From Eledone cirrhosa (taxonomy: Eukaryota), in contig OZ024743.1 of the NCBI GenBank assembly GCA_964016885.1, positions 296,980,001-297,044,000 on the forward strand: a stretch of 64,000 bases of DNA, read 5' to 3'. Positions within the stretch are counted from its first letter, which is position 1; each line of letters starts with the position of its first letter. Below the pieces are notes generated by a model. The model searched no databases. It was not told where the DNA came from and saw only the letters and a list, made by a program, of their open reading frames with translations. The position numbers and the translations under genes were made by a program. Below, piece by piece: positions 4,030 through 53,700 of the stretch.

Positions 4030-5368
4030 TATATATATATATATATATGTATATATGATAATGATTTCTTTTGCCCTATGGCTGAACTCTTACCATTTTG
4101 CATATATAATTCAATGTTAATTTTGGATAGGGATTGACTTAGTTTCCTTGCTTTCATAACATCTTTTCTTTTTTCTATATTTTCTAAAAGCCTACTTGAT
4201 GGCACTTGCACTCACATATTACAGGTCATTCTGAATATCTCCTTAAAATGCATCCAACCAAATATAAACTGTATGGTAATCTTTTTGCAATCACTGATGC
4301 CACTGGTAGGAGATGCTTACATTTTGCAAGATATTGTTGGAGAGCTAAGCAAGATTCATAAATGATATGCTCCTATGTTCACCTGATAAAGTTATACAAG
4401 GGCTGGCCATCCATAAAATAAAACCTCCACCAACCAGTACTGTATAGATATGGGAATTTACCCTGCTGTCCTCCTGAATACTATGTGGGATTGAGATGAG
4501 TGGTGTCATCAAGTCAGACAAATCCAAGCAAACTCGAGATGAAAGACCCCCTTATTTGAAATGAGTAATGTAAGCATTGATATTTTCTGAAGGGAAGTGT
4601 GTTAATAAGATTGCTTACGAACAAATTGAATTTTCACTTTTTTCTCTTAAAGCTTCTAGAGAATTTCCTAGAAATTTTGGTAAATTTCTACATATATCAG
4701 GACTACAAAAAGTAGTTGATATGGAAGCCCTGAGACTGCAAAATGAGAGGAAAACAAATTGGTTATAATTTAGTTTACCTTTAATAAATACTATATTTAG
4801 AATGTTATAAATACTTAAAACATTTGTATTCAGTTATTAATATGAGATGCAATACAGTAGGCAATTTGATTTTGTTTTAATTAATTATTGATTTCAAAAA
4901 CATAAGAAATTCAAATCCTGAAATCATTGGAGGGGTGGTATAGTCAGATAAGTTGACATCCCTAGTTATCCGGTACTTGGTATATTTATGCTGGAAGCAT
5001 GAATGAATTAAGACATTTAGAGGCTCTTAGTACTGAAGAGATTATGGCACTCCCATATACTGTATATAGAAAAAAAATATATATGGGGCTCCTTTACACA
5101 AGGCCCTAATAATGTATTACTCAATGGTTAATTCAGAGTTGACTGGAAGGATGAAAGACAGAGTCAAACTTAGTGTGATTTGAAATCAGAACATAAAGAA
5201 ATTTAACTGACTTCCCACAAGACAGTTTGTCTTTAGCCTCTACTAACGTCTGCCAATAAAACATAAATATTTTTAAACAGCTTAGAGTTAGAAAATATGA
5301 AATTGACAAAATAATTTTTGCTGACATTGGCCCAAGCCCAGAAACTTGGTGGAACGCAGGGGAAGTTA

Positions 5369-6223
5369 ACTAGTACTTTATTAACTATTACTTTATTGAC
5401 TGGTACTTTATTAACTGGTATTTTATTGACTGGTACTTTATTAACTATTACTTTATTGACTGGTACTTTATTAACTGGTACTTTATTAACTGGTACTTTA
5501 TTAACTTTTACTTTATTGACTGGTACTTTATTGACTGGTACTTTATTAACTGGTATTTTATTGACTGGTACCTTATTGACTGGTACTTTATTAACTATTA
5601 CTTTATTGACTGGTACTTTATTAACTGGTATTTTATTAACTGGTACTTTATTGACTGGTACTTTATTAACTGGTATTTTATTGACTGGTACTTTATTGAC
5701 TGGTACTTTATTGACTGGTACTTTATTAACTGGTACTTTATTAACTGGTACTTTATTGACTGGTACTTTATTAACTGGTATTTTATTGACTGGTACTTTA
5801 TTGACTGGTACTTTATTAACTGGTATTTTATTAACTGGTACTTTATTGACTGGTACTTTATTAACTATTACTTTATTGACTGGTACTTTATTAACTGGTA
5901 TTTTATTAACTGGTACTTTATTGACTGGTACTTTATTAACTGGTATTTTATTGACTGGTACTTTATTGACTGGTACTTTATTAACTGGTATTTTATTGAC
6001 TGGTACTTTATTAACTATTACTTTATTGACTGGTACTTTATTAACTGGTACTTTATTGACTGGTACTTTATTAACTGGTATTTTATTGACTGGTACTTTA
6101 TTAACTGGTACTTTATTAACTGGTACTTTACTGACTGGTACTTTATTGACTGGTACTTTATTAACTGGTACTTTATTGACTGGTACTTTATTGACTGGTA
6201 CTTTATTAACTGGTACTTTATTG
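5369..6223. repeat. 15-bp minisatellite (ACTGGTACTTTATTR) x57, expanded inside a SINE
   Basis: 855 bp equals 57 units; the unit matches the ACTGGTACTTTATT segment of SINE family A, and SINE sequence continues on both flanks. Confidence 0.95.
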
Positions 6224-6297
6224 ACTTCAGAAAAATGAAGGCAAAGTTGAGCTTGGCGAGATTTGAATTCAGAACATTAAGAGTTGGAAGAAAATAA

Positions 6298-6479: not shown

Positions 6480-7129
6480 TAATAATAATATTAGATAAAT
6501 ATCTAAAATAAAATAAAATAAAATAAAATAAAATAAAATAAAATAAAATAAAAATAAATAAATAAGTAAATAAATAAATAAATGTTAGAAACTTTATATA
6601 ATCAAATATCCTGGTTTGTAAATATAAGTGATATAATGTAACTTATAAATCTATAAACATATTCACTTTTCATGTTTGATTCATGTTTAGTGTCTGAAAA
6701 TACATTGTAACAAAATGACATGTCTTGTTTTGTTATTTTTTATTTGATATATCCAACAGAGATTCAGTAAAACAATTATTGGTATATTTATTTTTCAAAT
6801 GTAGGAGAGGGAACCAAATGTTTAGTGTATGGTTAATAAAAATAAAAAAAAAATAAAAAAAAAAACAGGTAAAAAAAACATGAAAGTTGAATGAATGATA
6901 AAACAATAAAAATAGACCTTTATGTGTGTGTTTAGTTATATATAAACATATATATATAAAAGAAAATAAATTATTAGATAATATACTTTATTAAATGATA
7001 AAAGTTAAAAGAAAGAAAAAATTGGAATTGTTATAAAAAATATTACTTTTAAATAAAACATTTAATATGATAACACTTTAAAGAAAAACAGAAAAAGAAA
7101 AGAAAAAACAAACATGTTTTATGATTTCA

Positions 7130-9370
7130 GTTTGATATGCTTTAATATTTAACAAGTTTGATATTTATTTTAACAATAGGCTTCAATAGATATGTTTTTT
7201 ATATATATAATATGATAGAAAAAAAATTAATAATTGTAAAAATAAGATAATATTGCTTTTCAAATTTGATTTTTTTTAAATGCGTTAAATTAAAAAAAAA
7301 GTTGATAGAGATATCAACAATGAAGATGTTATTGCTTATTTGAATATTTTCATTGAAAATCTAACCTGATATTGCTTCAAGAGAATGAGAAAAAAACAAA
7401 TTATTTTATAGTTTTATATGACAATTTAATATAAGGAGTCACTTTCCATTTTAAATTCGATCACTCCTGATATTTTCCATTAGGAACTAGACAGTCAGGC
7501 TTGTATTATATATATGAATAAGTTTTCAAGAAGAATAGTTTATTTACAAAATCTATGAGATCTATGAGATAATATTGTTTTTCATATCTCAGTATCTAGG
7601 CATTACTAAGTGAATACTCACAAGCAGTTTACAAAACCTATAAGACTATATTGTCTTTCATAACTGGTCTTCTGGGTCTAAATAAATGGGTGCTGATGAA
7701 CAGAAACAACTGTGAAATACATGTATCTATTGCTATTGTTCTGATTCTGGTGTTGCTGGGACATGATCACATCTTAAAATACTTACAGAAAGACTAAATA
7801 AATGCATGTTTATCATACATAAACATATTGTATATAGGTTCACATATGCCTTTAATTTTAAAGAAAATAAATTATGTAAACAAGCCTCAAACAGTCTGAA
7901 GAATGATATTCAATAAGAACATTGGTTTAGATATGTTAGAGTTTATCATTTGGGGTTAATGTAAAGACAGAGTTTAGTCAAACAAGCTCCAAATAGTCCT
8001 AGAACTGAAGAATAATATTTGATAAAAAATTGGAGCATTGGTTTAGATACATTATGAGTTGCCATTTGACACTGTTTAGAAACGGGTTTGTGACACACTG
8101 AAAATGGAAGGCATTTATAAGATGTTATATCCCCCAATTAGTTCAAGGACCAGAATAAATATATTCCAAAGAAATCATTTTCTTTACATTTTCATTAAAT
8201 TGTAACCCAAGTTTTATAATGGAATGTGGCTTTTATGTCACCCTGTAGTTATCAAATTTGATATCTATTTTAACAATATGTGTTTTCTTAGAAAACTGAA
8301 TAAATGGAAAAATGTGTTGGTATGCTTTTTGAATAATTGAATTGTTGTACCAAAATATGCATTAAAGTCTTTTTTTATGAATCTTATTGCTTATTTGAAT
8401 ATTTTTTAATGGAATAATCTGGTCCAATATTGCCTTAAGAGTATAAAAAACAGATAAACATATTTTATAGCTTAAGTTAATCTGAATATAGAGTGGTGCA
8501 AAAGTTATTTTCCATTTAAAATTTGAACACTTATAATTATTTCTTTAGGAGACTTGCTTGTCAAGCTTGCATTATATGTAAATAAACTTTCAACAAGAAT
8601 AGTTTGTTTATAAACTCTATAACACAATATTGTCTTACATACCTTGGCATCCGGGTATTAGTAAATGAGTGTTAGGCTGTGAAATACATGTATCCACCAC
8701 TCTTACCCTGATTCTGAGTTAGTATAACATGATCATAGTTTAAAATACTTACAGCTAGACTAAATGTATGTTTATTATACATAAACATATTGTGTATTGG
8801 TTCATATATGTTCATACATTAGTTTAAAAAAAAAAAGAATAATATTCAATATGAAATTGGAGCATTGGTGTAGATACATTTCAAGTTGTCATGGATCACT
8901 ACCTAGAAAGGAGTTCAACTGCGTAAAACTGAAAATGGAATGCATTTATGAGGTGGTATGTTCTACAATTAGATCAAAGTATTTCCCAAGGTCCCAAATA
9001 AAGATATTCTAAAGGGAAAATGTCTTTACATTTTCATTAAAAAAATGGTATTAAAACTTTAAAATGGAAAGTGAATTTTGTGTCACTCTGTAGTTATCAA
9101 ATTTGATATTTATTTTAACAATATGCTTCTATAGATATGTCCTTTTGTTTGGTTAGAAAATGAAAAAATAAAAATAAACAATAATAAATGAGTAAATTAG
9201 AATAAATAAATAAATGTAAAAATAAATTGGTATTGCTTTCCAAATTGAATTGTTGCAAAAATGTATTATAAATGATTTTGATAAAGGTATTGGTCATGAG
9301 AATTTTATTGCTTATTTGAATATTTTTCATTGAATAATTGACAGAATCTGATAAATATGTCAAACTCAAT
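7130..9370. repeat. Old tandem duplication, about 0.85-1.1 kb unit, about 2.3 copies
   Basis: Shared anchors TTTGATAT.TATTTTAACAATA (about 7157, 8257, 9102), ATTGCTTATTTGAATATTTT (7331, 8386, 9307) and CTGTGAAATACATGTATC (about 7711, 8677). Confidence 0.8.
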
Positions 9371-10004
9371 GTATAAAAAAAGGTGGTGGTGGTGGTGGTG
9401 GTGGGGGGGGGGGGAGTTATTGCTTTTGAAGTTGAGGGATGGAAAGGGAGGGGGGATAAAAATAGTGTCTTAAATGGTCAGACCAGTCAGTGTGTTAACT
9501 TTACTGATTGCCCATGAAGAACAGAGATAGTATTGGATTTTTAAAACACTTTATATATTGTATATAAAATGTTTTGATAAAGATATTTCAGCTATTTATC
9601 CCCCACATTATTGGACAGGAAAATATTATTGCTTGTATAATAGTCATGGACAAGAAAATTTATTAAGTTATTGCTTTTCGAATACTTTTGAATAAATTTC
9701 AGAAATTTCATAAATTTCATGATTTTCATAAATTATACGAAATACTTATTTCCTATGAATACAAAATGTTATTATTGCTTTTGTGAATATTTGGTTTGTA
9801 AATAGGTTTTAAAAAATTGTTGTGACTTGTTTTCTTTTTATAAGGTATAAACAAAAACATTATTGCTTTTTAGAATATGTTCATGAAATGAGTTTGAATT
9901 TGGAAGTTTTTTTTCATCAGCACATGGTGATAAAGTTTATATAGAATGACAACAGATTTTCTTTTTTTTTTAGACAATTCAGTGGAGAGAGGAAATTATT
10001 GCTT
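7251..10004 (-). promoter_or_regulatory. Cluster of 12 candidate miR-137 target sites (AAGCAAUA on the minus strand)
   Basis: Plus-strand TATTGCTT at 7251, 7330, 7370, 8385, 9231, 9306, 9418, 9627, 9669, 9773, 9861 and 9997, identical to the 5' end of miR-137; six are followed by GAATA; transcription is not shown by sequence alone. Confidence 0.6.
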
Positions 10005-10357
10005 TCTGTAATTTTATCTTAATGGGAAAAAATAAATTATTTAAACAAAATGAAATAGATGGAACATGTAGATCAACTTCATGTAGCACAGTTGTTGAAG
10101 AGAAAACATTATGGACATGTTCAAGAACAAAAGAAAAATATGAACATTTATATCAGAATATCAGAGGATTGATTGAAAATTTAAAGTGTATTAAACTTAT
10201 TTTTATTGATCTCATAAATTAGCAGCGGATCGGCATAAAAATTATTAATTTAAAATCTTAATTTGATTAACACCAATTATTCTAGTAAGAAAACCTTTGT
10301 TAACTAACTAACTGTGTATATATATATATATAGTTAGAAAAATAATATAATCCCTTA

Positions 10358-10401
<44 letters not shown>

Positions 10402-13400
10402 TAAGGGATTATATTATTTTTCCCCTTTTAACTGATATATTTGCTTATTATATTGCATACAAAATACATTTGTTTATCCTTAACTCATCTTGTTTGAGAT
10501 GAATTATAAGATATGCGATTCAATTTTATTCTAGTCTAAATGAGAAAGAAATATCTAAAATTAACTGTTTGTTAGCGTTCAGTATTCAAATTTTATTTAA
10601 CATATTTTTCCATACATTAACAATTATATGTTTAGCTTAGAGACTTTTTAATCCATGCACCATATTCAACACATTAGCATCTAGTATTTGTTTTATAACT
10701 AAATCATTGTTTAACACATGCGCACACACACATACACGCACACACACACACACACACACATACATTGTATTCAATCTATAACAAACTAATATACGCTTAA
10801 ACTATTTTTTAGCAAACAATTATAAAATCTTTTAATTCCTTAAAAAACATCACCTAATATGTCTTGGGCTGTTTAATATATCCACAATAACCAACAAATT
10901 ATTGTTTTTACATTATTAATGTTACATATTTATATTTATCTAACTTAGAATTTCCAAACAATGTGTCATATAACCTACTGTGTCATGAATAATCTCTAGG
11001 TTTATCACAAAATTAAGTCAAATCTGATCTATTTCTGCAAATCTTTGTCTATGAAGTTTACTTTTGAGATCTTACAACTCTGCATACAATGAGGCACACT
11101 ACTGTTGACACATACTATGATATTTAACTGTTTATTAATGAATTTTATTAATTTCACCCCATGAACCGTACTTTATTGTGTCGTGAAAAGAATTTCATTA
11201 TTAAAAAGTGTGTCGCCAATGTGAAAAGTTTGGAAAACCGTGGTTAAGCCACTGTTGAATCTTTAAATTTGAATAATTGCTAATTCTTACACTTAGATAA
11301 TTACAATCATATCTTTTCATTTAGCTAATCACAAACTGATAATTAAATTTGGGAAATCAATGTTCAGTCTTTATGTTTGATTTAGTGAAATACAAAACTG
11401 ATATTTGCTTTGATTTTACTCTAATCTGAGTCAGTACAGATTAACTATCCTGGCCTTGTGCCAAAAGTAGAAACAATTATTAGATCCAGTCAGTTGACTT
11501 GTATCTATTTATTTTGCTCATTTACTTGGTCTTTCTAATACATAATCTACAATATTTAGAGAATATGTTATCTAATGATCTTAGTTTTTAGCCATTAGAT
11601 CACTAATCAATATGACATTAATGTATATTCAAGTAACAGCAGTATAGAAGATTCAAGATAAAAAAGGTTTCCTCAGATTGAAAACTACTGTAATTATCAT
11701 CGAAATTTTAAACATTTTTCTTTTCCTTTAAAATAAAAATCGAACATAGTTTTTATACATATTCTCTTTTGATTTGTATTTGTTTTATGAGATATTTCAT
11801 AAGGGTTTTAAGGGTAATTAAAATTTTAGGAAGGCTAAAATGAAAATGAAAATTTGTGAACATATGAACTTTGACATAGTTTTATCAATATCAACAGGGA
11901 ACAATTAACAACAATTTTAATATTTTTTAGTGTGGTAGGGGTTATCAGAATATCTTTAAATCTCATCATATGAGAAGGGAAGTTGAATTATAACAAATGA
12001 GAAAATGTGCCAATGTTATTGAGGTAATTGTTAGAGCTTAAACAAGTTCCATACTTTTGAAGTTGTTGGCTTTTGTTTCTTTTGTAACTTGCTCATTATT
12101 TCAGTATTACATATAAAAACTGATATGAATGAAATATTCTCTGATAACAATGATGATGATGCCGGGAAAGGGGAAAAGGACAATGAGGAAGTTTATTATT
12201 ATAATGATCATCATTACCATCATCACTTTCACCAGGATAAAGCAGAAGTTATTGTTATATTATAAAGCATTTTAGATGTCGAGTTAAATTTGATCTTTCT
12301 TTTCTAATTTCTTATTGAAGATAATGTTACAAACTTGAGAGATAGGTTGCTTATACATTTTAGTTTATTAATTTAGTGAATAATTAAGAAATTATCTAAT
12401 TGATTGATAATAAAACCAAAAGGAAACCAACCTGAGTGTGCATTTTAATTGGTAGTATGATCCCTTCCTAAGTTTACAACAATATAGTTTCAACACACAC
12501 TTTAAGATCAAGAGTGTCTTGTCAAATATAGACAAGAATAAAATATCAAGTATTGTTGTTATGTAACAATCAATGTAATGTTTTGTATGATATCGGTTGA
12601 GCATCTTCCTTAGAAGACATGCTTCACTTCTGTGTTTCATTGAATAGGAATACAACAAGATTAGTTGTATGTGAAAGAATTCTTTGCCAGAGTGTTATAG
12701 TGACAATATATAGCAATAGAAAGATCATTTAATGGAAGAAGAGGAGGATAAAATGAAACCTGTAAATGCTGGTTATGAAAATGAACCATAGCAGAATAGA
12801 AAAAAAAAAAAAATAAAATAAAAATGTAAAACTATATTAGCGATATAACTGAACCACTTAGTTCATTAGATAAAGAGTTTTTTCAAATAACCTGAGTTCA
12901 CAAAATGAGGTTTTGTATCTGTCATTTTCAATTTTTGTTAAATATAATGTAAATTGATTGAACCCCTAATTAGTTCATACTGAAGAAACACAACCATGTT
13001 GAAACAGCTGTCTACAATATGAAAGGAGGAAAATATTATAGTTGAAATGTAATTAAATTAAATAAATATTAAATGAAAATAATATGGTGTAACTTACTTA
13101 TTTAATGAAAGAATACACTTTTAACAAGACTTTTATCTCTTGCAAAAACAAAATGTTTTCTTTTATATTTAAATTATTAAGTTGTTGAATATATTTCCTA
13201 AGTTATAGCAACATCTACTATCATTTTGCACCACATTTGTGACAAAGGGGAAAATGATAATGATAATGAAGATGATGATGATGATGAGCAGGAGGAGAAG
13301 GAAGAGGAGTAACAGGATGAGAATAATGTGGACAATAGCAATTATCTTTGTCTGTTGACTAGGCACACAGCCAATTTGTTTAAGTAGAGAGATGTGCAGT

Positions 13401-14494
13401 ATATTATTGGGACTTATTTGATCTATTCTGGAAAGTCGAAAGGCAAGCTCAGGTTAACTATAGTAATTTTTAAAAGAAAACTAAATATTGCAAGATATTC
13501 AGCCTGGGACTTTACCATTTCTTCCAACTGCTTTTGTAAAGTTTTCTTCTTTAAATTATGGTATGGAATATCTGCAAATAATCTTAATGATTATTTATAA
13601 ATTTAATTATTCATTTATAAACTTTATCATTAAAACTTCCAAATTTTTTTTTGAAAATGTAAACAACTTACAATGATCACAACTTGTAAAGTAAACATTT
13701 TTTATGGCTCACAGGCACAAAAAGCAAGTTGACAAATTCACATTTTCATCATAAATAGATGACTATCAAAACTATTATCAATTTGCTGACTGTTGCAGAA
13801 ACATTGTTATACATATTCAAAGAAATTCATTCTTCTTTTGTACACATTCTTACATCCCAGAAGAACAATTGAGAGGCAAATAACAGAAACCACAAAATTA
13901 AAACAAAACAAAATATCAACAAATTTCATATTCCTGAAATATATGATAAAAAATGGAATCTTATATCATAAATTATATTTGGAATATCATTTTAGAATCA
14001 TCATAATTGTTTTAGGAATGTTTTTACTTATGTAATCATCAAAATATTTAACAACTAGAATGCATTGTTATCACCCGTTAACATCTGTTCTCATGTTTTC
14101 TCATCTGACTAATTAACTGTTGGTGTTGTTTGGTAAATGACTATGCCAAGTTCATAAGGAATGATTTAATTACCAGTGCAAATTCATTAAACAATTTTTG
14201 TTATCAATTATGGCATCAGAGAACATTTTTGTATTAACAAACACTTTGGGCGATTTTTCAAGTAAAAAGAAATCATCCCCTAAATGAAGTGATTCAATGA
14301 TTGCTAGTAACTTAAAAAAATATACAGATTCTAAAATTTTCTATGAATCAAGAAAGAATAATATCAAATAATTATCAAAGACCCCCTTAAAATGTTTGAA
14401 ACATTTTAATGATAGCTTAAGGAATGTCATCAAGAATTCTCTTTTAAGTATTAAATGTTTTGTGACTAAGGATTTTTTTCTGTCTTGTAGGTAA

Positions 14495-14716
14495 CCCTTT
14501 CATGACCATATTTATAATGAAATATACTCTTTCAATTAATGCAGAATTTTGGATGATTTACTCAAATGATTATTTCTTTCCTAATATAATAACTTAAAAT
14601 ATGGTTCTTGTATAGTATCATGTTGGAATATATAAATTCATATAGGAATCGTTTGAAATGGGTGGTATTCTTTCATAGAACTAGGTCTGGTTTTGGCCAG
14701 GTTGGTATCAAAAGGG
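14495..14716. mobile_element. Older piggyBac-type MITE, family 2
   Basis: TAA-CCCTTT...GGTATCAAAAGGG-TTAA; related ends at about 2371 and 33347, reversed copies near 42740-43005 and 57580-57800. Confidence 0.6.
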
Positions 14717-15315
14717 TTAAAGCTTATCACTGGAACTAGTTTTATTCTGTTAAGTATGTTGATTTTGTCTTTGATTTTGTTCCATTGTTAAAATTATTTA
14801 AAGGAGTAACACTCGAACACACAAATGTTGTAACACACAGGATAATATTATAGATATAACCTTACTCCTAACCCAACATTTTGGCTCCATCAAAATGAGA
14901 CTTCTCTATAAAACCAGAGGAAGAAAAACAACCCCTTCAAAAGCTCCGCTTTTGTAACATTAAAGGGAGATAGCAAGAAAGATGAAAAAAAAAAACTAAC
15001 TTTTTCAGGAGGGGCAAGAAAATAAATTATGCCTTCTTCGAAATATTTTTTGAATGAAAATTTTAGAAGTGAACAAGCTTCTGATTCTAAAGTCAAGTTA
15101 AAAAGACACAAATATTTAGACAATTTTCAAAGCGTTAATAATATTACTAGACAATTTACAGAAATAAATCGCCATTTATAAAGGTTTTTATTATTGGTGT
15201 AATTTATTTGTATATATATAAAAAATTTACTGGTAAAAATTTTAAACCAGACTTAGTGCATATTTGTATTTTTGCATATTTAAATATGTTTGTATGTGTG
15301 TTTATCACAAGTAAT

Positions 15316-15317
<2 letters not shown>

Positions 15318-15405
<88 letters not shown>

Positions 15406-15457
15406 GACACACATACATATGTATATATATATATGTATATTTGTATGTGTGTGTATG

Positions 15458-15539
<82 letters not shown>

Positions 15540-15835
15540 TATGTATATATATATATACATACATGTATATATATATATATATATACACACACACATATAT
15601 GTGTGTGTGTATATATATATACATCCCCACTCATATATAAATGCAGGCATATATGTATGGATCTTTTTACATATGTATGCACGCATCTTCTTGTGGATTT
15701 TGTAGAGCAGGTTTCTATTACAAGAAACTTTTATCAGCCAAAATATACACACAACGTATCTATATATCTCTATAAATATATATTTACACATACACACATA
15801 CACACACACACACACACACATACACACATATATAT
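15318..15835. repeat. Compound (TA)n/(TG)n/(CA)n microsatellite block
   Basis: Read directly; many other (TA)n, (GA)n (17436-17535), (GAT)n, (TATG)n (40095-40238) and (AAAAT)n (6505-6580) tracts occur across the window. Confidence 0.95.
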
Positions 15836-16133
15836 AGTGAATTAATAAACAACTAATACAAAATATGTTGGTGTTATCTGACTATCTAAAAATGAGCTTT
15901 CCACCTTAGTCTTTTTACGGAATGTTCAAGACAGATCAAAATGGTGCTTCTGCTTATTACAGCTGCATTAAACAAATTTGATGGAGAGTGTGTGACTGAA
16001 GGGATGTAAATTTCTGAAAATTACTTTTATTTTATGGTAGTTATTTACTCTAAGTTTGTATTGAAAAAATTAGTGCTGTGTTTCTCATTTGTACAGTTGA
16101 ACAAAATAATTTACTTGTATATATATATATGTA

Positions 16134-16219
<86 letters not shown>

Positions 16220-16535
16220 TATATATATATCTAGGGAGTGTAACTTGGAGTTACTGCAGGTTCACCCGGGTGAGCACTCGATGTTTAGGTTCACTTCTGT
16301 GTTGAGGTGTAAGCTATACAGAGTGTAATATCTTGAAAGGAGTAACCAAGGAAGATTGGTTACTCCTTCATTAGTAATGAAGGAGTAACCAATCGTCCTT
16401 GTTATCCTTTGTATTGTGTGTACAAATGAAACAAACTAGCACTCAAGAGTACTTTTGCCTGTATAAACATGCAAGTATACATACATTTTTAAATTAATAT
16501 CTTTTTGCCCACTAAATGTTTTAATGATTACAATA

Positions 16536-16577
<42 letters not shown>

Positions 16578-16612
16578 GTATGCATTTACATACATATCTA
16601 TATATCTATATC

Positions 16613-16643
<31 letters not shown>

Positions 16644-17430
16644 GTGTGCGTGTGTGTGTGTATGTGTGTGTGTGTGTGTGTATAAACTCTGCAACACCTA
16701 CAAAAACAGCTAACATAAAGATTCACTGAGAAATACGTGTAGACTCAGATGTATAACAAGATCTAAAGATTTGCATACCAGATGTTAACGTTCAATTTGT
16801 AATATAAATATCAATATCAACAGATTAGATGTAAAACATTTATAAGATTCCTTTAACACAATAATATTTCACAAAAAAACATAATGATAATAATTATAAT
16901 TATAGTAATTATAATAATAATTCGAATACATAAGTAATAGTTGTATGAATGAATTTCAGGAAATTACCCCCCAAATAAAAAAAAAAAAAAATCAAAGAAA
17001 TGGAAAAAAAGCATCGGTAAAATATATCCAACCATTTTTCACTTTAGAAGAATTGCTCTTGATAGTTGACACAAACATTTGAAAAAAAACAAACAAAAAC
17101 AACAAACAAAAAACATGTGTAAGAGCTTGTGAAGAACCAAACTTTTTCTTTTGTTTTACAATATGTATATTTTTTAAACCAATGTGTTAGAACAAGTAAC
17201 TGTGGTGGATTTTACTTGATTGGTCCTTTGTAAACCACATGGTTGGCTGGTTGGTTCAATTGAAAAGTTTCCAACCCACTCACCCCTAAACACCCCATAT
17301 GGTCAAGCTTTTTGTAATCCATATTCTTATTTGTTCTCTTCTAACAGATTATTTTCTTGTTGGAGTGTGGGATGGAGGGTTGATTTAAAACAAGAATAAT
17401 GTTATCTTACTAAAGAGAAAGAAAGAAAGA

Positions 17431-17538
<108 letters not shown>

Positions 17539-17763
17539 ATAGCAGTATCAACAACATTAACAATGATAACAATATTCTGAACATATATTTAAAAGACTGT
17601 CTCCCTTTTCTAAAAAGTAGCATGTTATAGTAATGTCATTGACCATTTCCAAAGACATTGCCACATTGGCCATCATCACTGGTTTGTTTTAAAGGATTAT
17701 TGCAATGGTTTCTGTTCATTTATTCTAAACCAGGGTATATTGACTATGTGATTTCTGATATGG

Positions 17764-18393
17764 TTAACCATTTGATCCAAGAGAAGGATCTGATGTTGTT
17801 CCAATATATCCATAGTTAACATGCTCTTTAACACCCAGATCCTCTTGTGAGATCTTCAGTGCTGGGTTAATTTTACCATTCATTTCTAGTGTTGGCGTGA
17901 TTGCTGTCAATTCATTGGCTGGTTCTCTCATGGCAAGGGCGATAACTTCATCTGGTATATTGACAATGCACATAAAAACATCATAACGCCGAGGTAGATG
18001 GGCATTCTCAAAGAGATATTTGAACACATATGAGACACCTGCTATTGTTCCAAGAGAAAGAAACATCGACAAGGTTTTGAATGGAAACATTTGAAGCTTT
18101 TCCTCCTCATCATAGAAAGGATAAAATATGATGGGTTCGATAAAAAGTGTGGGTTCCCCTCCTGAAAGGCGCATGAATATGCCAACTATATAGCCAGCTA
18201 ACGATCCATAGGTGTTTGCCCATTCTAAATACACGACAGTCACAAGCTGTGGGAACAATATTACATAGACAAAATCGGAGCAAAGATACCAAAGATCATA
18301 CACCGATGTCACCTTTAATGCCATCGCAGTTGCAAGAACACCAACGCCAAATATAGCTATACGCATCACCCACAGGATTTCTTGGTCAGATGC
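17764..18393 (-). CDS. SLC5A7: CHT1 coding exon 8 (last), 630 nt including stop
   Basis: Acceptor TCTTTTCCAG|; [18 protein letters not shown]...[17 protein letters not shown]...RLSGGEP...FPFKTLSM...; TAA at 17766-17764; the eight exons sum to 1713 nt, 570 aa plus stop. Confidence 0.96.
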
Positions 18394-19269
18394 CTGGAAA
18401 AGACAAAAAAAACAGCATTTATAAAATCTGCAGAAGATTTATGAAACTTTAACATAAAATCTAATATGATAAAGATATTGGCAAGAAAGTTTGTTAAAGG
18501 AATAGAGATGACACAGTCACAGAGATGACACAGAAATTAGTACTGAAGATTTGAATAGTAATAACTTAGTAACAACAATAGTAGGAAAAATCTATAAGAT
18601 TTGGGATGTGTGGAATATAGAAAATAGTTACTGATTGAAAATAATGGGGGAATATGTATTGAGAACCTGAAGGGAAAAAATGATTAAATAAAGAAAAGGT
18701 ATAAAAATATTTCATTTAAATATAATGTTTATATTTTGTTTTTCTCTTATTCACAAACAGCTGCAACAATCTAGCTAGGTTTAAAACAAAACTACAGTTT
18801 AAACATACATTAAACATACATTAAAAAAACACAGTTTAAACATACATTAAAAAAATCTTTTAGTAGACTACCTAAAAAAAAGAACGTCACAGTGAAACAT
18901 GAAAATGCTCCAATATATTTGCTGAATGTGTTAAAGGGTTTTCAACCTTAAATCTTATTCAACTCTTTATTACAATTTCTTTCCTCCTTAACCATTTGCA
19001 TAAAGGTAGCAGCATTTACATGTGACCTAAACATTTTATGCAAGACTTCACAAAGGAAGCAGCATCTACATGTGACCTAGATATCTTATGCAAGACCTGC
19101 ATGGCTTTCAGAAGCCCAAACCTTAAATATATCTTCCAACAAAGACATTGCAATCTAAACTTCTTCAACAACACTGATATATAGTTACTGATAACACCAC
19201 TTTCTTGATCATGATATACAGTGTAATTACATCACACATGTATAACATTTATATAAAAGATTTCTTTTT

Positions 19270-20310
19270 ATTTAGTAGGTCTGGAGGAACCCAGGGGTAG
19301 ACTACGAGCAAGACGGTTGGATAACATTTATGTTCTCAATTGGTCTTGCTTGGGGATTCAGCTGGATCTATAGGAGACAGATGCTTTTGATAGGACCTGC
19401 TGGAAAACATGCTTCAAGTCTCTGCCCCCATGACCCTCCCAAGAAAAAGAAGAAAAAAGGAGGAGGAGGGGAATTACGAAATGCATGTAGCTGCTACAGG
19501 CTCTCCAAAATCAGAGATTTTGTTTAAATGGCTGCAAGTTGACTCCTGTAGGAAAGAGATAAATAGAGAGGGATGAGTTTAGAGATTTGTACAGGACCTT
19601 AGGGTGACAAGGAGGTGACATGACATGGGGGTTGAGAGAAGGAGAGACAAGTGAGTCAGGAATATCTGAGCGGTAGTAGTAGTATGAAGCCTGTCAGCTT
19701 CAAGAAGCCTGAGACCATGGTAGTAAATGTAGAAGAGACAGAGAGAGGTGACAGTACATCTGAGTGCCAGAGGATGTAATGTCATTTAATTAAGTGGGTT
19801 TTCTCTGGACACAGTTTAAGATATTAGTGTGTGCAACAATAGCACAAACCTAGATATAGAAACAGTTCTTTATTTTTGGTTTCCCCTAACTAGATTTAAA
19901 TCTCAATAACTAGAAAATACTCCAGCTTAACTAATTAACAACTTCTATAGAGAAAAAATGAAACCTTTACTGGAGCATTACTAAAATATCTGGAATGGTA
20001 TTGCTGCAATGCATAAAAATTATCTTACTTTGCTTCCCAGATTAGATCATTTGATTTATTGACAAAACCCCTCTCACTAACAAATGTGTTATTCCTTCTC
20101 TTTTTCTCTTCTACTACTATGACTTTTGTTCATTTGAGCTAGCAAGCTGTATACCTACTTCAAATTCACCTGATGCAGCTGTATCTCCTCTTCTACCTCT
20201 TACCTTACCTACATCATCTCCCAAATACTGTACTAAAGGCATTACCCAATCTTTCTTCTTCATTACTGTAACCCTCTGAAATTTCTTCCCTGACTATATT
20301 TCTTTTTACA
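19270..20310. mobile_element. Decayed CR1/Jockey-like LINE fragments
   Basis: Minus-strand LALRCTVTSLCLFYIYYHG resembles a CR1-group RT C-terminus; 19270-19450 is repeated at about 43320-43530. Confidence 0.4.
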
Positions 20311-20342
20311 GAGAGCAACCTACAGAAATTGAAGCTTTATAG

Positions 20343-20679
20343 CAGAGTGGGTACTATCCCACCCCTTGGAGAGGGGTGATCGAGAAGGTCCAGGGTGCGC
20401 TGTGGCCTAAGGAGGCAGTGGGAGCAGTAGAGATGATATAATAGTATATAAATGATACATATGATATATGAATATAGTAAAATAAAAAAAATATATTTAT
20501 TTATACATAGTATATATTATATTTTTTATTACATATAAATTAACAATTTTATTTATAATATATTATTTACAATTTTCCTGTAGGTAGGTCTCTCTGGATA
20601 TAGGGTTGGAGTGGGTGGGTAGTGAGGGTATTATGTGGCCGTGAGCGGGGTGGTGGCTCGAAAAGTTTGAGAACCTCTG
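20343..20679. mobile_element. hAT-type MITE
   Basis: CAGAG... and ...GTTTGAGAACCTCTG ends; 8-bp TSD CTTTATAG/CTTTATAT (7 of 8 match). Confidence 0.6.
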
Positions 20680-20717
20680 CTTTATATAAACTGTATTAAC
20701 ATCATAACATTATCAGT

Positions 20718-20820
20718 GCCGAGGTTAACCCTGCCTTTCATCCTTACGGGGTCGATAAAATAAAGTACCAGTAATGTACTGGGTAATTGCTGGCCTTGTG
20801 CCAAATGTAGAAACAATTAT
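20718..20820 (+). mobile_element. SINE family A, 5'-truncated, inverted relative to 20875-21061
   Basis: GCCGAGGTTAAC...GGGGTCGATAAAATAAAGTACCAGT...GTAGAAACAATTAT. Confidence 0.8.
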
Positions 20821-20874
20821 CAGTCTATAAGAGCCTGTAGTGGTCGTAGTGACTGACATCCTGCTTACTACAAA

Positions 20875-21061
20875 ATAATTATTTCTACTTTTGGCACAAG
20901 GCCAGCAATTATCGCAGTGTATTACTGGTACTTTATTTTATCGGCCCCGTAAGGATGAAAGACAAAGTTAACCTCAGCGGGATTTGAACTCAGACCATAA
21001 AGGGCCGTAACTCTTCACTGCAAAGCATGGCATCAGACCCTCTACCGATACTGCCAATCCA
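20875..21061 (-). mobile_element. SINE family A, full length
   Basis: Near-identical to 6298-6479 and 28587-28771. Confidence 0.8.
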
Positions 21062-21411
21062 CAAAATAATAAAACAATAAGACACAGGCATGACACTTCA
21101 CAGCCATATGGTTTTGAGTTCTATTGCACCTTGGGAGTGAATTTAGTAGATAAAACTCTGTAATACTGTAAAACAGTTGATGTTAGGAAGCATATCAAGT
21201 CATAGAAGCTATGTTAAAATGGAACAACAAATAATCCCTTGATCAGTCAAATTTTTGAGGACTATGCATTATTTTGAATAAAACACTAACTATAATGACC
21301 TGTCCAACCAATGTCAGCAGGAAAAGCAGACATAAAATAATGATGACTCATGAGCCAGTAATATCTTATCCATTCAGTCATCTAAAAAAGGTTAATAAGA
21401 AAACTACTTAC

Positions 21412-23694: not shown

Positions 23695-24359
23695 TGGGGA
23701 TTCTTTTCTTTGTTTTTGTGCCTCTCCTTTGTTCTGTCCTACGCCATCTTGTTTCTGTGTGTGTGTTGTGTGCTCAGTCTGCGCATGCGCCACATCCGGG
23801 TGTCTGTGTGTGTTTGTATTCGTTTATTTATTTGTTTATTTACATGTTACAGGTTGGTTGTTTGTTCTATGTGCGTGTGTGTTTTCATTTTGTCCTTAAT
23901 TGTAAGTTGTGATGTTGCTGTTCCACTCATGTTTTCTATTTAATTTTGGTTGTAATTCTTTTATGTTTATTGCCTCTGTGATTTGTCTAAACATTACGTC
24001 TTTTCTGTGTGTAGATTCTATTTTTATTTCTATGTTCTCTAATTTACCCTTATGTTCTATTTTAGCATGTTGGTAGAGCACAGATGATTCTTTACTATCT
24101 TGAAGGTCTCGCCAGTGTTCATTTATCCGTTCCCCTACACTACGAGCTGTCTCACCTATGTACACTATATTTTTGTCTCTACATTGTCCTTCAGTACATC
24201 TTATGCTATATACTACATTTCTAGTTTTACAGTTAATATGGGGGCTTAATTTACAGGTTATACATTTCTTATCTATACAGGGGGGTCTTTGAAAAGGGTA
24301 TGTCTTGCTAATAAGTGTTTTTACAGAGGTACCTGGTCTTTCTACTATCTTAAAGTATC

Positions 24360-27300
24360 TTGATTACTTTAGAGAATACCAATAGATATCCCGACAAAAT
24401 TGACGGTATAAATATGGCCGACATCTCATTAACTGATGAGTTCAACAACAACAACACAAATATATACGGCAACACTATGGTCGACTCTGATGAATTATTT
24501 GTATTACAACTGCCACCTAAGTATGCGACATTCAAGAAGGTAAATATAATTAGTTGTTTGTCAGAAATAGAAAAATCATTTACAAAATTACGTTGGAGCC
24601 TCAAACACAAAAACAAAAACAAAAGTAACAACACACGCACACACATATACAACACACATCCCAACAACAACAGACACACACACAAACAACAATAACAACA
24701 ACACACACATCAACAATAATATCATACACAGAAACAACAGACACGCAGACACAAACAACAATAATAACACACACAACAATAACAACACACACAACAATAA
24801 TAACACACACGGAGACAACAACAACAACACACATCAACAACAGCACACATCAACAACAACAACAACACACACACATTCAATGCCTCTCACCACCACCACA
24901 ATCTTAACAAACACACAGACACAGAAAACAGGTAATGAAAGTAGCACAGAAATAAGGGAAGGTAATAGGATTGAAAGGAGAAGGGAGACTATGGACAGAG
25001 AAAATAACCAAGACGAACACACAGACACATAAAATAGAGTAGATAATAACAATGAGCCAGATGAAAGAGACAGGAGTAATAATGAGAGACATAGAAACAA
25101 CCATGAGGCTGTTGATGGAAATAGAAATAGAAACAACACAACTAACAATAACAATAGCACTAGTACACATAAAGCAGCAGCCTGGAACTCTACTTTTTAT
25201 AATCCCTCCGATAAGTCGTTCGACCTGCGACGAGTCCACGCCACGACTTTACCTTTTAACAAACGCACACAATTGCCGTCGCAGGTCGATGAACAAACAG
25301 AAGCACAATTTAGTATAGCTAGATGTAAACTTAGAAATATTATAGAACAGTATAGCAAGAAGCATAATAGAATGGAGGCCCAGCAACTGAGAGAAAAACC
25401 TGCAAATGGCTTGTGTAAGCTCATGCAGCGCTCGCGTAATGGAGAGATAGCATGCTTTCCAACAGACAAGTTTGGCAGAATGTCGGTTGACAGTCTGCCA
25501 AACTACATCCAGGAAATGCAACCCCACATCACTAACACAAGAGAAGTAACACCACAAGAGCATGAGGATAGAGAAAAAGCCTTCAATGCCCATATGGTGA
25601 TGTGGACGAATATAATGCAGCCCCCAACAAAAGGACTGCCAACAACTTCCAGGCCTGGAACAATGACGTGCCAGCGTTGTATGGGCTTCGAAAAGACCAT
25701 AAAACGGGCAGTGACCCTGTCACGGGACCACCAACACGGCCAGTCTGTGGAGCTAACATTGCTAGTAACTACAGACTGTCCTACTTCCTCTCCCTGATCA
25801 TACGCCCCATCATTGAAATGTCCCCAGATGTATGTGGCAGCACGGAGGACCTCCTCAGACGAATCGGCGAGAGTAACCGATCTAGGGACCTAACAAACTG
25901 CATAATAGGAAGTATGGATGTTGTGTCCCTGTATCCATCTATTGACGTGGATTTTGCTGTGGAGAAATGCGTAGAAATGATCAGTGAGAGCAATGTTGAG
26001 TTCCGTGGGATTGATACCAGTGAGCTGGGACTCCTACTTAAACTTAATAATTACCTAGACACATATGACCTTAGCAACCTGTGCTCTACAAGACCAGCAA
26101 GAGGCAGACCATCTCAATGGCCAAGAAAACCCACACAGATAGATGGAACGGGTGGACCAGAGCCATACGGACACCCGAAAACCACGATGAACTAAAGAAA
26201 ATGATTGCACATGCGGTGGGGGCCAGCATAAAATTAACCCTTAAGGAACATATGTTCAAATTTAATGGAAAAACATATGCCAAAGAGGAAGGAGCAGCCA
26301 TTGGTGTTAGCATTGCAGGCGACATAGCTAACTTATTCATGGTATGGTGGGACAGTAGACTTAAACTTAAACTTAAAGAACAATTAGAAGACTCCTTAAC
26401 CCTGATAATGTACTCCCGCTACGTTGATGATATAAACATCGTAGTTAAAACACCCCCACTAGAGAACAGTCAGGAATTATAGAAAAACACAATGGAAAGC
26501 ATCCAGCAAATAGCTAACTCCATCCACCAGAGTATTAGAGTTACTATAGACTACCCAAGTAAACACCCCAACCATCGATTACCTGTACTAGACACAGAGC
26601 TCTGGTTAGATACCATTAATAACAAAAAACAAATCCTCCATTCCCATTATGCCAAACCCATGACTTCCAAATATCTGATCCACCGAAACTCAGCTGTTTC
26701 GGACCATACCAAAATCAACATACTGATTGCGGATTTGGTACGGGTGATGAGAAATGTGTCCTGCATGTGCAACCCCGAAGAACTAGAGAGACACATACAA
26801 CACTTCATCCACCGTATGCAGTTCTCTGGTTACAATCAGAGAGATAGAATCAGAGTGTATAGAGGAGCCAGAACCAAATGGGAAAAAAATGGTAAATAAT
26901 GACACAAATGGGACCTGCCCCTTGTATAGGAACAAATTTTGGAATAGAATAGAAAGAACTAGGAATAAGGCTAATAGATAAACTCATGGTATAATAGCAA
27001 TAAATACCAGAGTGTAATGTTCATCGATACAACCCCTAGAGGTGAATTAGCTTACAAATATAGAAGGGCCCTAGATAAACATAAACTCAATATTAAGATA
27101 GTAGAAAGACCAGGTACCTCCGTAAAAACACTTATTAGCAAGACATACCCTTTTCAAAGACCCCCCTGTATAGATAAGAAATGTATAACCTGTAAATTAA
27201 GCCCCCATATTAACTGTAAAACTAGAAATGTAGTATATAGCATAAGATGTACTGAAGGACAATGTAGAGACAAAAATATAGTGTACATAGGTGAGACAGC

Positions 27301-27550
27301 TCGTAGTGTAGGGGAACGGATAAATGAACACTGGCGAGACCTTCAAGATAGTAAAGAATCATCTGTGCTCTACCAACATGCTAAAATAGAACATAAGGGT
27401 AAATTAGAGAACATAGAAATAAAAATAGAATCTACACACAGAAAAGACGTAATGTTTAGACAAATCACAGAGGCAATAAACATAAAAGAATTACAACCAA
27501 AATTAAATAGAAAACATGAGTGGAACAGCAACATCACAACTTACAATTAA
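24360..27550 (+). pseudogene. Disrupted RT plus GIY-YIG ORF of the Penelope-like element
   Basis: Split over ORFs 24360-24695, 25273-, 25602-26195, 26081-26482, 26492-26899 and 27017-27550 by frameshifts and stops; AAC/ACAC low-complexity stretch at about 24600-25160. Confidence 0.85.
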
Positions 27551-27751
27551 GGACAAAATGAAAACACACACGCACATAGAACAAACAACCAACCTGTAAC
27601 ATGTAAATAAACAAATAAATAAACGAATACAAACACACACAGACACCCGGATGTGGCGCATGCGCAGACTGAGCACACAACACACACACAGAAACAAGAT
27701 GGCGTAGGACAGAACAAAGGAGAGGCACAAAAACAAAGAAAAGAATCCCCA

Positions 27752-27794
27752 GTCACTGAAGAGGTCACAGAATGTGTGACGAAAGAACTTTGAC
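27752..27794 (+). ncRNA. Minimal type I hammerhead ribozyme motif in the Penelope pseudo-LTR
   Basis: GTCA-CTGAAGA-G-GTCACA(GAATG)TGTGAC-GAAA-G(AA)C-TT-TGAC: stem I GTCA/TGAC, 6-bp stem II, 2-bp stem III; minimal hammerheads are known from PLE pLTRs. Confidence 0.75.
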
Positions 27795-27936
27795 AATATA
27801 TAAACAACCATCTGGTTGTGGAACCAACCAACCGGAAATTTATAAATTGCTAAATTTATAAATTTATTATAATAAATTGAAGTGAAAGCAACTGGTGCGT
27901 GTGTTTCTTATTGGCAACATGACCCTCCCAAAGTAT

Positions 27937-41176: not shown

Positions 41177-41456
41177 TGGAGGCATATGGCTTAGTGGTTA
41201 GAGCATTGGTCTTGCAATCGAAAGGTTGTGAGTTCAATTCTCAGAATGGGTGATGTGTTGTTTCCTTGAGCAAGACACTTTATTTCCCATTGCTCCAGTT
41301 TACTCAGCTGTAAGTGGACGTGTAGGTGCCATGGAAAAAAAAGCACCCATCACTCACTGTAAATGAGGTTGGTGTTAGGAAAGGCATCCAGCTGTAGAAA
41401 TCAAGCCAGAATCAGTTCCCATTCCACCCTTACAAACAGGGAAAAGCGGACGTAAA

Positions 41457-50347: not shown

Positions 50348-50522
50348 CTGTCATTGTAAATATTCCGACAAGCATTCCTAGATTCCGCCCAGCTAACATC
50401 ACATCGTCACTGTCGGCTTGTGCACCTGTTTGTTTGGACTTGCGACCAGCCCATATTCCAACGAATAAGATTCCCAAGTAGAAGATAACAATAGCTAAAA
50501 CTCCAGCAATGTGCACAGCCAT
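50348..50522 (-). CDS. SLC5A7: High-affinity choline transporter (CHT1, Na+/solute symporter family), coding exon 1, 175 nt
   Basis: ATG at 50522; [30 protein letters not shown]...[18 protein letters not shown] matches the CHT1/CHO-1 N-terminus; donor CAG|GTAAGT at 50348/50347, phase 1. Confidence 0.96.
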
Positions 50523-53500: not shown

Positions 53501-53700
53501 ATGGAGGCACGTGGCTTAGTGGTTAGAGCATTGGCCTTGCAATCGAAAGGTTGTGAGTTCAATTCTCAGACCGGGTGATGTGTTGTTTCCTTGAGCAAGA
53601 CACTTTATTTCACATTGCTCCAGTTTACTCAGCTGTAGAAATGAGATGATAGGGACTGGGGCCCATATTACAGTGGTCGTGCAGGTGCCACGGCAAAAAA
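53501..53700 (+). mobile_element. SINE family B, 5' part
   Basis: Near-identical head to 41177; older copies at about 241-420, 1669-1800, 48700-48850 and 58870-58970. Confidence 0.78.

Follow-up and report, generated by a model that had tools for sequence, protein, structure and literature searches.

The 64,000-nucleotide stretch of Eledone cirrhosa DNA considered here (assembly GCA_964016885.1, contig OZ024743.1, positions 296,980,001 to 297,044,000; hereafter the window, numbered from its first letter) raises the question of why one 8-mer, TATTGCTT, occurs 12 times between 7251 and 10004, always on the plus strand, with only four more copies elsewhere in the window (16 in total). An earlier note on this DNA had described miR-137-like motifs in the region, and all of its motif coordinates proved correct. 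It had not recognized the host gene on the minus strand, which encodes the choline transporter ChT (SLC5A7). The plus strand reads like miR-137 itself and the target is therefore a minus-strand RNA; the array sits 7.8–10.5 kb beyond the ChT stop codon, on the sense strand of the gene. We favor, with a probability of about 70%, the interpretation that a 12-site miR-137 array occupies the final 2.9 kb of a ChT 3′ untranslated region (3′UTR) of ∼10.6 kb and mediates AGO–miR-137 repression without slicing.

The excess of sites is large by several measures. In shuffled windows, TATTGCTT is present on average 5.1 times and at most 11 times, with none of 100 reaching 16. As a background, 34 genomic stretches of 10 kb each, chosen at random and counted on both strands, contain 15 copies in 340 kb, so that only 0.06 copies would be expected in the array. 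No other 8-mer made up of all four bases is as frequent as TATTGCTT between 7141 and 17763. Three of the sites (7330, 8385 and 9306) are copies of one site generated by a triplication, as the earlier note had cautioned, and those at 7251 and 9231 are also duplicates. Collapsing both groups leaves nine independent sites, all on one strand (p = 0.004). As a simple count, 9 of the 12 sites exceed the regional median unpaired probability.

The genome contains a single mir-137 match (G000:C27, 75 bits, above the Rfam cut-off). Its 3p arm consists of the seed block, two bases and GAAUA, so the species' own microRNA (miRNA) retains the second block on which the earlier note had relied. We rejected the idea that the sites are themselves mir-137 gene copies on the plus strand because their 82-nucleotide (nt) folds have energies of −4.2 to −14.9 kcal/mol, compared with −25.7 kcal/mol at the real locus. 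An Rfam search of the window for miRNAs returned none.

Pairing beyond the seed

The earlier note proposed a seed, a bulge and a second block of 3′-supplementary pairing, and this architecture holds up: GAATA follows the seed after a 3–4-nt spacer at 6 of the 12 sites, a spacer 1–2 nt longer than that within miR-137 itself. The three copies of the triplicated site (7329–7346, 8384–8401 and 9305–9322, all targets on the minus strand, as are those that follow) are 8mers for both 5′ isoforms of miR-137, with 5 nt of 3′ pairing at an offset of +2, and the site at 9772–9789 has the same properties. Two further dual-isoform 8mers have 6 nt of 3′ pairing: 9668–9685, at offset +1, gives the strongest predicted duplex (−16.3 kcal/mol), and 9860–9877 pairs from nt 10 of the isoform starting UAUU, at offset +2. 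At 7370–7386, which lies 40 nt from the 7330 site and is an 8mer for the UAUU isoform and a 7mer-m8 for the UUAUU isoform, GAGAAT takes the place of GAATA at offset +3 and provides 6 nt of pairing to nt 9–14. A second match of 5–6 nt to the 3′ half of miR-137 is thus present at 7 of the 12 sites. The others are seed-only 8mers at 7251–7258 and its paralog 9231–9238, seed-only 8mers for both isoforms at 9417–9425 and 9996–10004, and a dual-isoform 8mer with a 4-nt 3′ match at 9626–9634, 42 nt from the 9669 site. Predicted duplexes across the array range from −8.6 to −16.3 kcal/mol.

The second block is not a general companion of the seed. GAATA follows 6 of 12 array seeds and none of 15 seeds from random genome stretches. 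With offsets of 0 to +4, a contiguous 3′ match of at least 5 nt is found at five of the nine independent sites and at none of the 15 random seeds (Fisher p = 0.003; p = 3.5e-5 against a 5% positional null), and only 20 of 5000 decoy miRNAs with a shuffled 3′ end score equally. Genome-wide, we found at least 225 matches to TATTGCTT-N3,4-GAATA, with at least 117 for a reversed-motif control, where ∼355 were expected from background rates. There is therefore no genome-wide seed–GAATA association of the kind that a dispersed repeat might have produced. When the leading T is included, 6 of the 73 genome matches to TTATTGCTT-N3,4-GAATA fall within these 2.55 kb; the sole other close pair flanks a short interspersed nuclear element (SINE). 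A supposed second array at G000:C13:39.67 Mb was rejected because it consists of two copies of a SINE flank.

These results also bear on the identity of the ligand. A protein that binds DNA or RNA could recognize the bipartite motif, or the motif could have arisen by chance in AT-rich sequence and been multiplied by tandem duplication; either way, its likeness to miR-137 would be incidental. The region is indeed 73% A+T and triplicated, GAATA is common locally (21 copies on the plus strand in 2851 bp), and the three copies have the same spacer. We nevertheless regard this explanation as improbable. Nine independent sites share one strand and lie outside the dispersed repeat, and a variable spacer length would be unusual for a DNA-binding dimer. 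The commonest 5-mer downstream of the seed is the GAAUA of miR-137 (6 of 12, compared with 3 of 12 for the best 5-mer upstream), and the enrichment persists when the local GAATA rate is used (p = 9e-5 for four of the nine independent sites). Because the sites are confined to one strand and co-oriented with a transcribed gene, a ligand acting on RNA is favored over a DNA-binding factor, in line with the earlier assignment to miR-137 and AGO.

The array also carries information about the 5′ end of the miRNA. Defining an 8mer as Watson-Crick pairing to nt 2–8 plus an A opposite nt 1, every one of the 12 sites is an 8mer with the UAUU isoform, and 9 of the 12 are 8mers with the UUAUU isoform. The earlier note had taken an invariant final T and a variable base before TATT to indicate the isoform starting UAUUGCUU. 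The final T is indeed kept (12 of 13 for TATTGCT; 9 of 10 independent, p < 1e-3) and fits UAUUGCUU, but not exclusively. The variability of the preceding base was overstated, since it is T at 9 of 12 sites and at all six GAATA sites. This leading T is enriched (seven of nine independent sites, p = 0.007–0.016; 3 of 15 random seeds), and most sites are therefore also 8mers for the UUAUUGCUU isoform. The array thus seems adapted to both 5′ isoforms of miR-137. The UUAUU form is given in the snail studies PMC7328434 and PMC5834643, and for Octopus vulgaris table S4 of PMC9699675 has an entry ‘Mir-137-v1’ with an A at position 2. The label ‘v1’ would imply a second form. That table presumably counts from 0, judging by the sequences of miR-124, miR-1 and miR-71, and we take Mir-137-v1 to be the UUAUU form.

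The extent of 3′ pairing further allows us to consider whether the main effect of the array, placed in the ChT 3′UTR, is target-directed miRNA degradation (TDMD) of miR-137 in cholinergic neurons. The sites at 7370, 9669 and 9861 reach exactly six contiguous 3′ pairs, and none has more. Six is the lower bound satisfied by 12 of 13 validated TDMD triggers according to PMC10899785, and clustered TDMD sites are described in PMC12573233, which counts for this possibility. On the other hand, pairing at the array sites never extends beyond nt 16 of the UAUU isoform, and the 3′ end of miR-137 would therefore remain in the PAZ pocket. The duplexes are also weak, at only −8.6 to −16.3 kcal/mol, and the 9–10 nt of 3′ pairing in the TDMD structures covered by PMC10899785 is not reached here. 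We therefore judge TDMD to be very improbable as the principal function of the array.

The host gene and its inferred 3′UTR

The gene on the minus strand has eight exons in our model, running from an ATG at 50522 to a TAA at 17764 and covering residues 1–570. The last coding exon with the TAA stop (17764–18396, minus strand) is 97% identical to an O. bimaculoides protein named high-affinity choline transporter 1. The seven upstream coding exons lie between 21406 and 50522 on the same strand, with tblastn bounds of 50522–50346, 37086–36946, 36366–36166, 33558–33409, 32400–32224, 28496–28353 and 21654–21406. The protein belongs to the SSF family (PF00474) and matches ChT1 in the PDB with E = 1e-46. 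By these similarities, the host gene is the SLC5A7 high-affinity choline transporter. A divergent SLC5A7 paralog (39% identity) is located at G000:C2:161522869–161523390 (L028), and the 20 kb downstream of it contain no sense miR-137 sites.

Evidence that the array is transcribed with ChT comes from contigs of one sequencing run, X4. The kind of run is not on record, and we judge it RNA-like only from one contig that is spliced from 18392 to 21411, across the last ChT intron, and leaves most of that intron uncovered; X4 therefore behaves as RNA. Its cover extends over 7219–15300, with breaks at skipped repeats and a long contig ending at 7219, and over 17545–17763. We infer from this a single transcript with a 3′UTR spanning 7140–17763 on the minus strand. 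An AATAAA poly(A) signal at 7164–7169 (minus strand) is followed by a U-rich tract at about 7120–7080, which places the predicted distal 3′ end near 7140. Contig depth in X4 is about 5 in the coding exon, 59 at the array and about 2 below ∼7200 (X1 is flat), a change that fits a 3′ end near 7200 but, as contig depth from one study, is given little weight.

The same data bear on whether the sites, while real, belong to a non-coding RNA of their own on the minus strand, or to a stable cleaved 3′UTR fragment, downstream of ChT, that serves as a sponge or carrier for miR-137. Twelve sites for a single miRNA would be unusual in an mRNA, and a seed with 3′ pairing around a central bulge is slicing-resistant, which a sponge requires. 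A boundary could be accommodated by the interval 15301–17544, which falls outside the X4 comparison, or by the proximal AATAAA signals at 17719, 16026 and 15187–15203. Against this, X4 cover leads on past the array as far as 15300, where the compared stretch ends, and continues beyond the last exon to 17545; no splice joint, open reading frame (ORF) or Rfam family there indicates a second gene. For a circular sponge in particular, no back-splice is present among the joints listed in the contigs of this run, although contigs from a single run could miss one, and the poly(A) signal favors a linear end. A sponge or carrier is, in our estimation, unlikely.

If the array is instead part of the ChT mRNA, as we favor, its function can be outlined. 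AGO–miR-137 would dock through the seed and then form five or six 3′ pairs across a 3–4-nt target loop, in a register of nt 11–15 for the UAUU isoform (the positive-offset mode) or nt 12–16 for the UUAUU isoform. With nt 9–10 unpaired, cleavage would be prevented, and the many sites would act additively through deadenylation and translational repression. The two pairs of sites 40–42 nt apart may be cooperative, going by their spacing, and the nine dual-isoform sites would make repression robust to shifts in processing. Choice of a proximal AATAAA (e.g. 17719 or 16026) would remove all miR-137 sites from the message.

Other features of this part of the window can be noted briefly. Within the presumed UTR, 10337–10422 is a perfect 43-bp inverted repeat centered on (AT)20, a possible ADAR substrate. 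In a ChT intron, 23896–27907 contains ORF fragments that by eye are reverse-transcriptase-like and GIY-YIG-like, with an inverted partial copy, and is Penelope-like. Two weak matches to tRNA, both at the Rfam cut-off (41187–41244 and 53510–53573), are probably tRNA-derived SINE heads.

Duplication history and the strength of the case

The array was shaped in part by an old tandem triplication at 7110–9350, whose units (about 7110–8260, 8230–9120 and a partial 9090–9350) are 71–77% identical. It copied the poly(A) region as well as the sites. A 22-nt block that includes the bipartite site shows no differences among the three copies and is the longest three-way invariant run (equaled in 20 of 10,000 permutations), which suggests selection. 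An old dispersed-repeat fragment at 8552–8810, with a paralogous fragment at about 7626–7854, contains no sites. A dispersed-repeat origin of the array was rejected, since TATTGCTT is present in none of four repeat loci (L002–L005) and the sites lie outside the repeat.

Several remnants of the triplication are visible. Copies 1 and 3 retain the AATAAA (7164 and 9109), which copy 2 has lost, beside a 13-nt invariant block (7150–7180, 8255–8280 and 9100–9125); the copy 3 signal is a possible alternative end that would retain only seven sites. In unit 2, the sequence at 8321, paralogous to the 7251 site, lacks one seed base and has GAATA after 3 nt, and that at 8428 has a G:U wobble in the seed. 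Both are possible 3′-compensatory sites. Elsewhere in the window, 5366–6226 is a 15-bp minisatellite of 57 copies beside SINE-like sequence, and the first unit of a 17-bp array at 1009–1226 contains a TATTGCTT (1017) that is unrelated to the miR-137 array.

Several observations weigh against repression of ChT through this array. Some concern the second block: with a 3′ match of just 3–4 nt, the remaining 5 of the 12 sites lack genuine 3′ pairing, and of the six sites with GAATA, three descend from one by duplication. When the allowed offsets are loosened to −3 to +8, 1 of 15 random seeds qualifies (p = 0.015) and 88 of 5000 decoys score equally; the signal therefore resides in the shared register. 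At loose offsets, 8 of 26 seeds from mixed, partly selected genome loci also had a run of at least 5 nt. According to PMC8940178, miRNAs without GG, CG or GC at nt 13–16 are suggested to have weak 3′ pairing. miR-137 has none of these dinucleotides there and its 3′ pairing is short and AU-rich, so the affinity gained from the second block may be small.

Others concern the transcript and its conservation. Beyond the coding exons, X4 cover was compared over 7219–15300 and 17545–17763, and no contig joins the stop codon to the array. The data come from one run in one study, and contigs carry neither strand nor ends. From 7000 to the stop codon the minus strand has 20 AATAAA motifs, and shorter ChT isoforms are therefore possible. 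The invariant 22-nt block takes in the spacer and flank, the poly(A) region has another long identical run, and gene conversion or some other constraint could contribute to the identity. Conservation is known here only between paralogous copies. Finally, according to PMC11653618, ChT and ChAT did not respond to miR-137 overexpression in cholinergic neurons of the mouse striatum, which suggests that a link between miR-137 and ChT, if real, is lineage-specific. Among 26 ChT-like metagenome loci, the 19 scanned downstream (mostly for <1 kb, at 36–60% identity) yielded one 8mer (L067) and no array, a result that is uninformative on conservation.

The cholinergic system and the significance of the array

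Choline re-uptake limits acetylcholine synthesis, so that in neurons rich in miR-137 a repressive array in ChT would impose a threshold for cholinergic capacity. Table S5 of PMC9699675 shows miR-137 to be broadly neuronal in O. vulgaris, and for this reason thresholding of choline uptake seems likelier than mere exclusion of ChT from non-neural cells. O. vulgaris neural genes have the longest 3′UTRs.

A related lead emerged from the acyltransferase genes. We located six genes with a PF00755 domain, on C12, C1, C2, C6, C10 and C27, and compared identity for the first four. For the C12 gene, two of the three exons compared match ChAT best, one of them with a VDNIR motif common to solved ChAT, and the third is slightly nearer CrAT; judged from sequence, this gene is ChAT. 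The C1, C2 and C6 genes match CrAT, CROT and CPT2. About 14 kb past the ChAT stop, on the sense strand, is a near-perfect miR-137 site (L032:5269–5286; G000:C12:41511269, plus strand) with nt 1–9 and 11–18 paired, one miRNA base bulged and a duplex of −23.2 kcal/mol, a TDMD-like arrangement. It lies in a single-copy island among microsatellites, with a second 8mer at L032:7093. The corresponding pattern of a seed plus 8 nt of 3′ pairing, which was defined after this site was seen, has 11 matches in the 3-Gb genome, one of them mir-137 itself, compared with five for a control. Half of the interval between the ChAT stop and the site is dinucleotide repeat with many AATAAA, and we treat the putative ChAT-linked site as a lead only. 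The nine further seed-plus-8-nt sites include G000:C4:347127046, C6:65587323, C1:234708645 and C3:232009634.

The stretches downstream of the other acyltransferase genes and the ChT paralog contain no array, and 6 of 10 have no sense site; sense sites number two in L032 and one in L033 (both behind ChAT) and three in L037. For VAChT, no ORF of at least 120 amino acids was found in C12:41.284–41.526 Mb. A tentative and on balance doubtful extension is that miR-137 is wired to the octopus acetylcholine supply. The array would repress ChT, the ChAT-linked site would repress ChAT or destroy miR-137, and together they would gate the identity or strength of the transmitter, alternative polyadenylation serving as a release switch.

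Targets with many sites for one miRNA include lin-14 (lin-4), Hmga2 (let-7) and Zeb1–Zeb2 (miR-200), which have roughly five to nine sites, encode developmental transcription or chromatin regulators and show strong, switch-like repression. The ChT array resembles them in that a single miRNA has numerous sites in what is probably a long 3′UTR, but it involves a transmitter-supply transporter, with 12 8mers in 2.75 kb that arose partly by tandem duplication of the 3′ end. CDR1as (ciRS-7), a sponge for miR-7, has far more sites than this array. The array is like CDR1as and the TDMD triggers treated in PMC10899785 in being a dense, same-strand and slicing-resistant set of sites for one neuronal miRNA, but we saw neither circularity nor a separate non-coding RNA, and the pairing stops short of the miRNA 3′ end.

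At the level of individual sites, the positive-offset supplementary sites described by McGeary et al. (2022; PMC8940178) are alike in having a perfect seed and A1, pairing from G11 or over nt 12–16, and an unpaired center. The lin-41/let-7 and cog-1/lsy-6 sites in the same source share the start at nt 11 and the +1 or +2 offset. The lin-41 sites, however, are compensatory, with an imperfect seed, whereas the array sites have perfect seeds and just 5–6 nt of AU-rich 3′ pairing. Supplementary sites make up ∼5% of conserved mammalian sites, compared with 7 of 12 in this one presumed UTR, nearly all in one register. The reported Lymnaea case of miR-137 acting on the CREB2 3′UTR (PMC5834643) likewise concerns a neural mRNA of a mollusc and works through a seed site, with a predicted duplex of −13.5 kcal/mol that is within the range of the array, but it involves one site in a transcription-factor mRNA rather than 12 behind a choline transporter. 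Our literature search, which did not take in the conserved-site list of PMC9699675 (data S3) where some of these sites may appear, found no report of miR-137 targeting of ChT among the papers listed, and the main text of that paper contains neither ‘137’ nor ‘choline’. Multi-site 3′UTR targets and supplementary sites are both known kinds; the density and shared register here are unusual.

We know of no worked-out octopus miRNA–target pair. The expansion of miRNAs and long 3′UTRs have been proposed as a basis of octopus brain complexity in PMC9699675. In this context, the array is an unusually strong and testable candidate pair that joins an old neuronal miRNA to the rate-limiting gene of a main transmitter system. 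It also supplies a natural series of sites that differ just in spacer and 3′ pairing, on which the positive-offset mode and the targeting of two 5′ isoforms can be tested, and it illustrates how the number of miRNA sites can grow when a 3′ end is duplicated in tandem. If the interpretation is true, miR-137 could act as a brake on acetylcholine supply.

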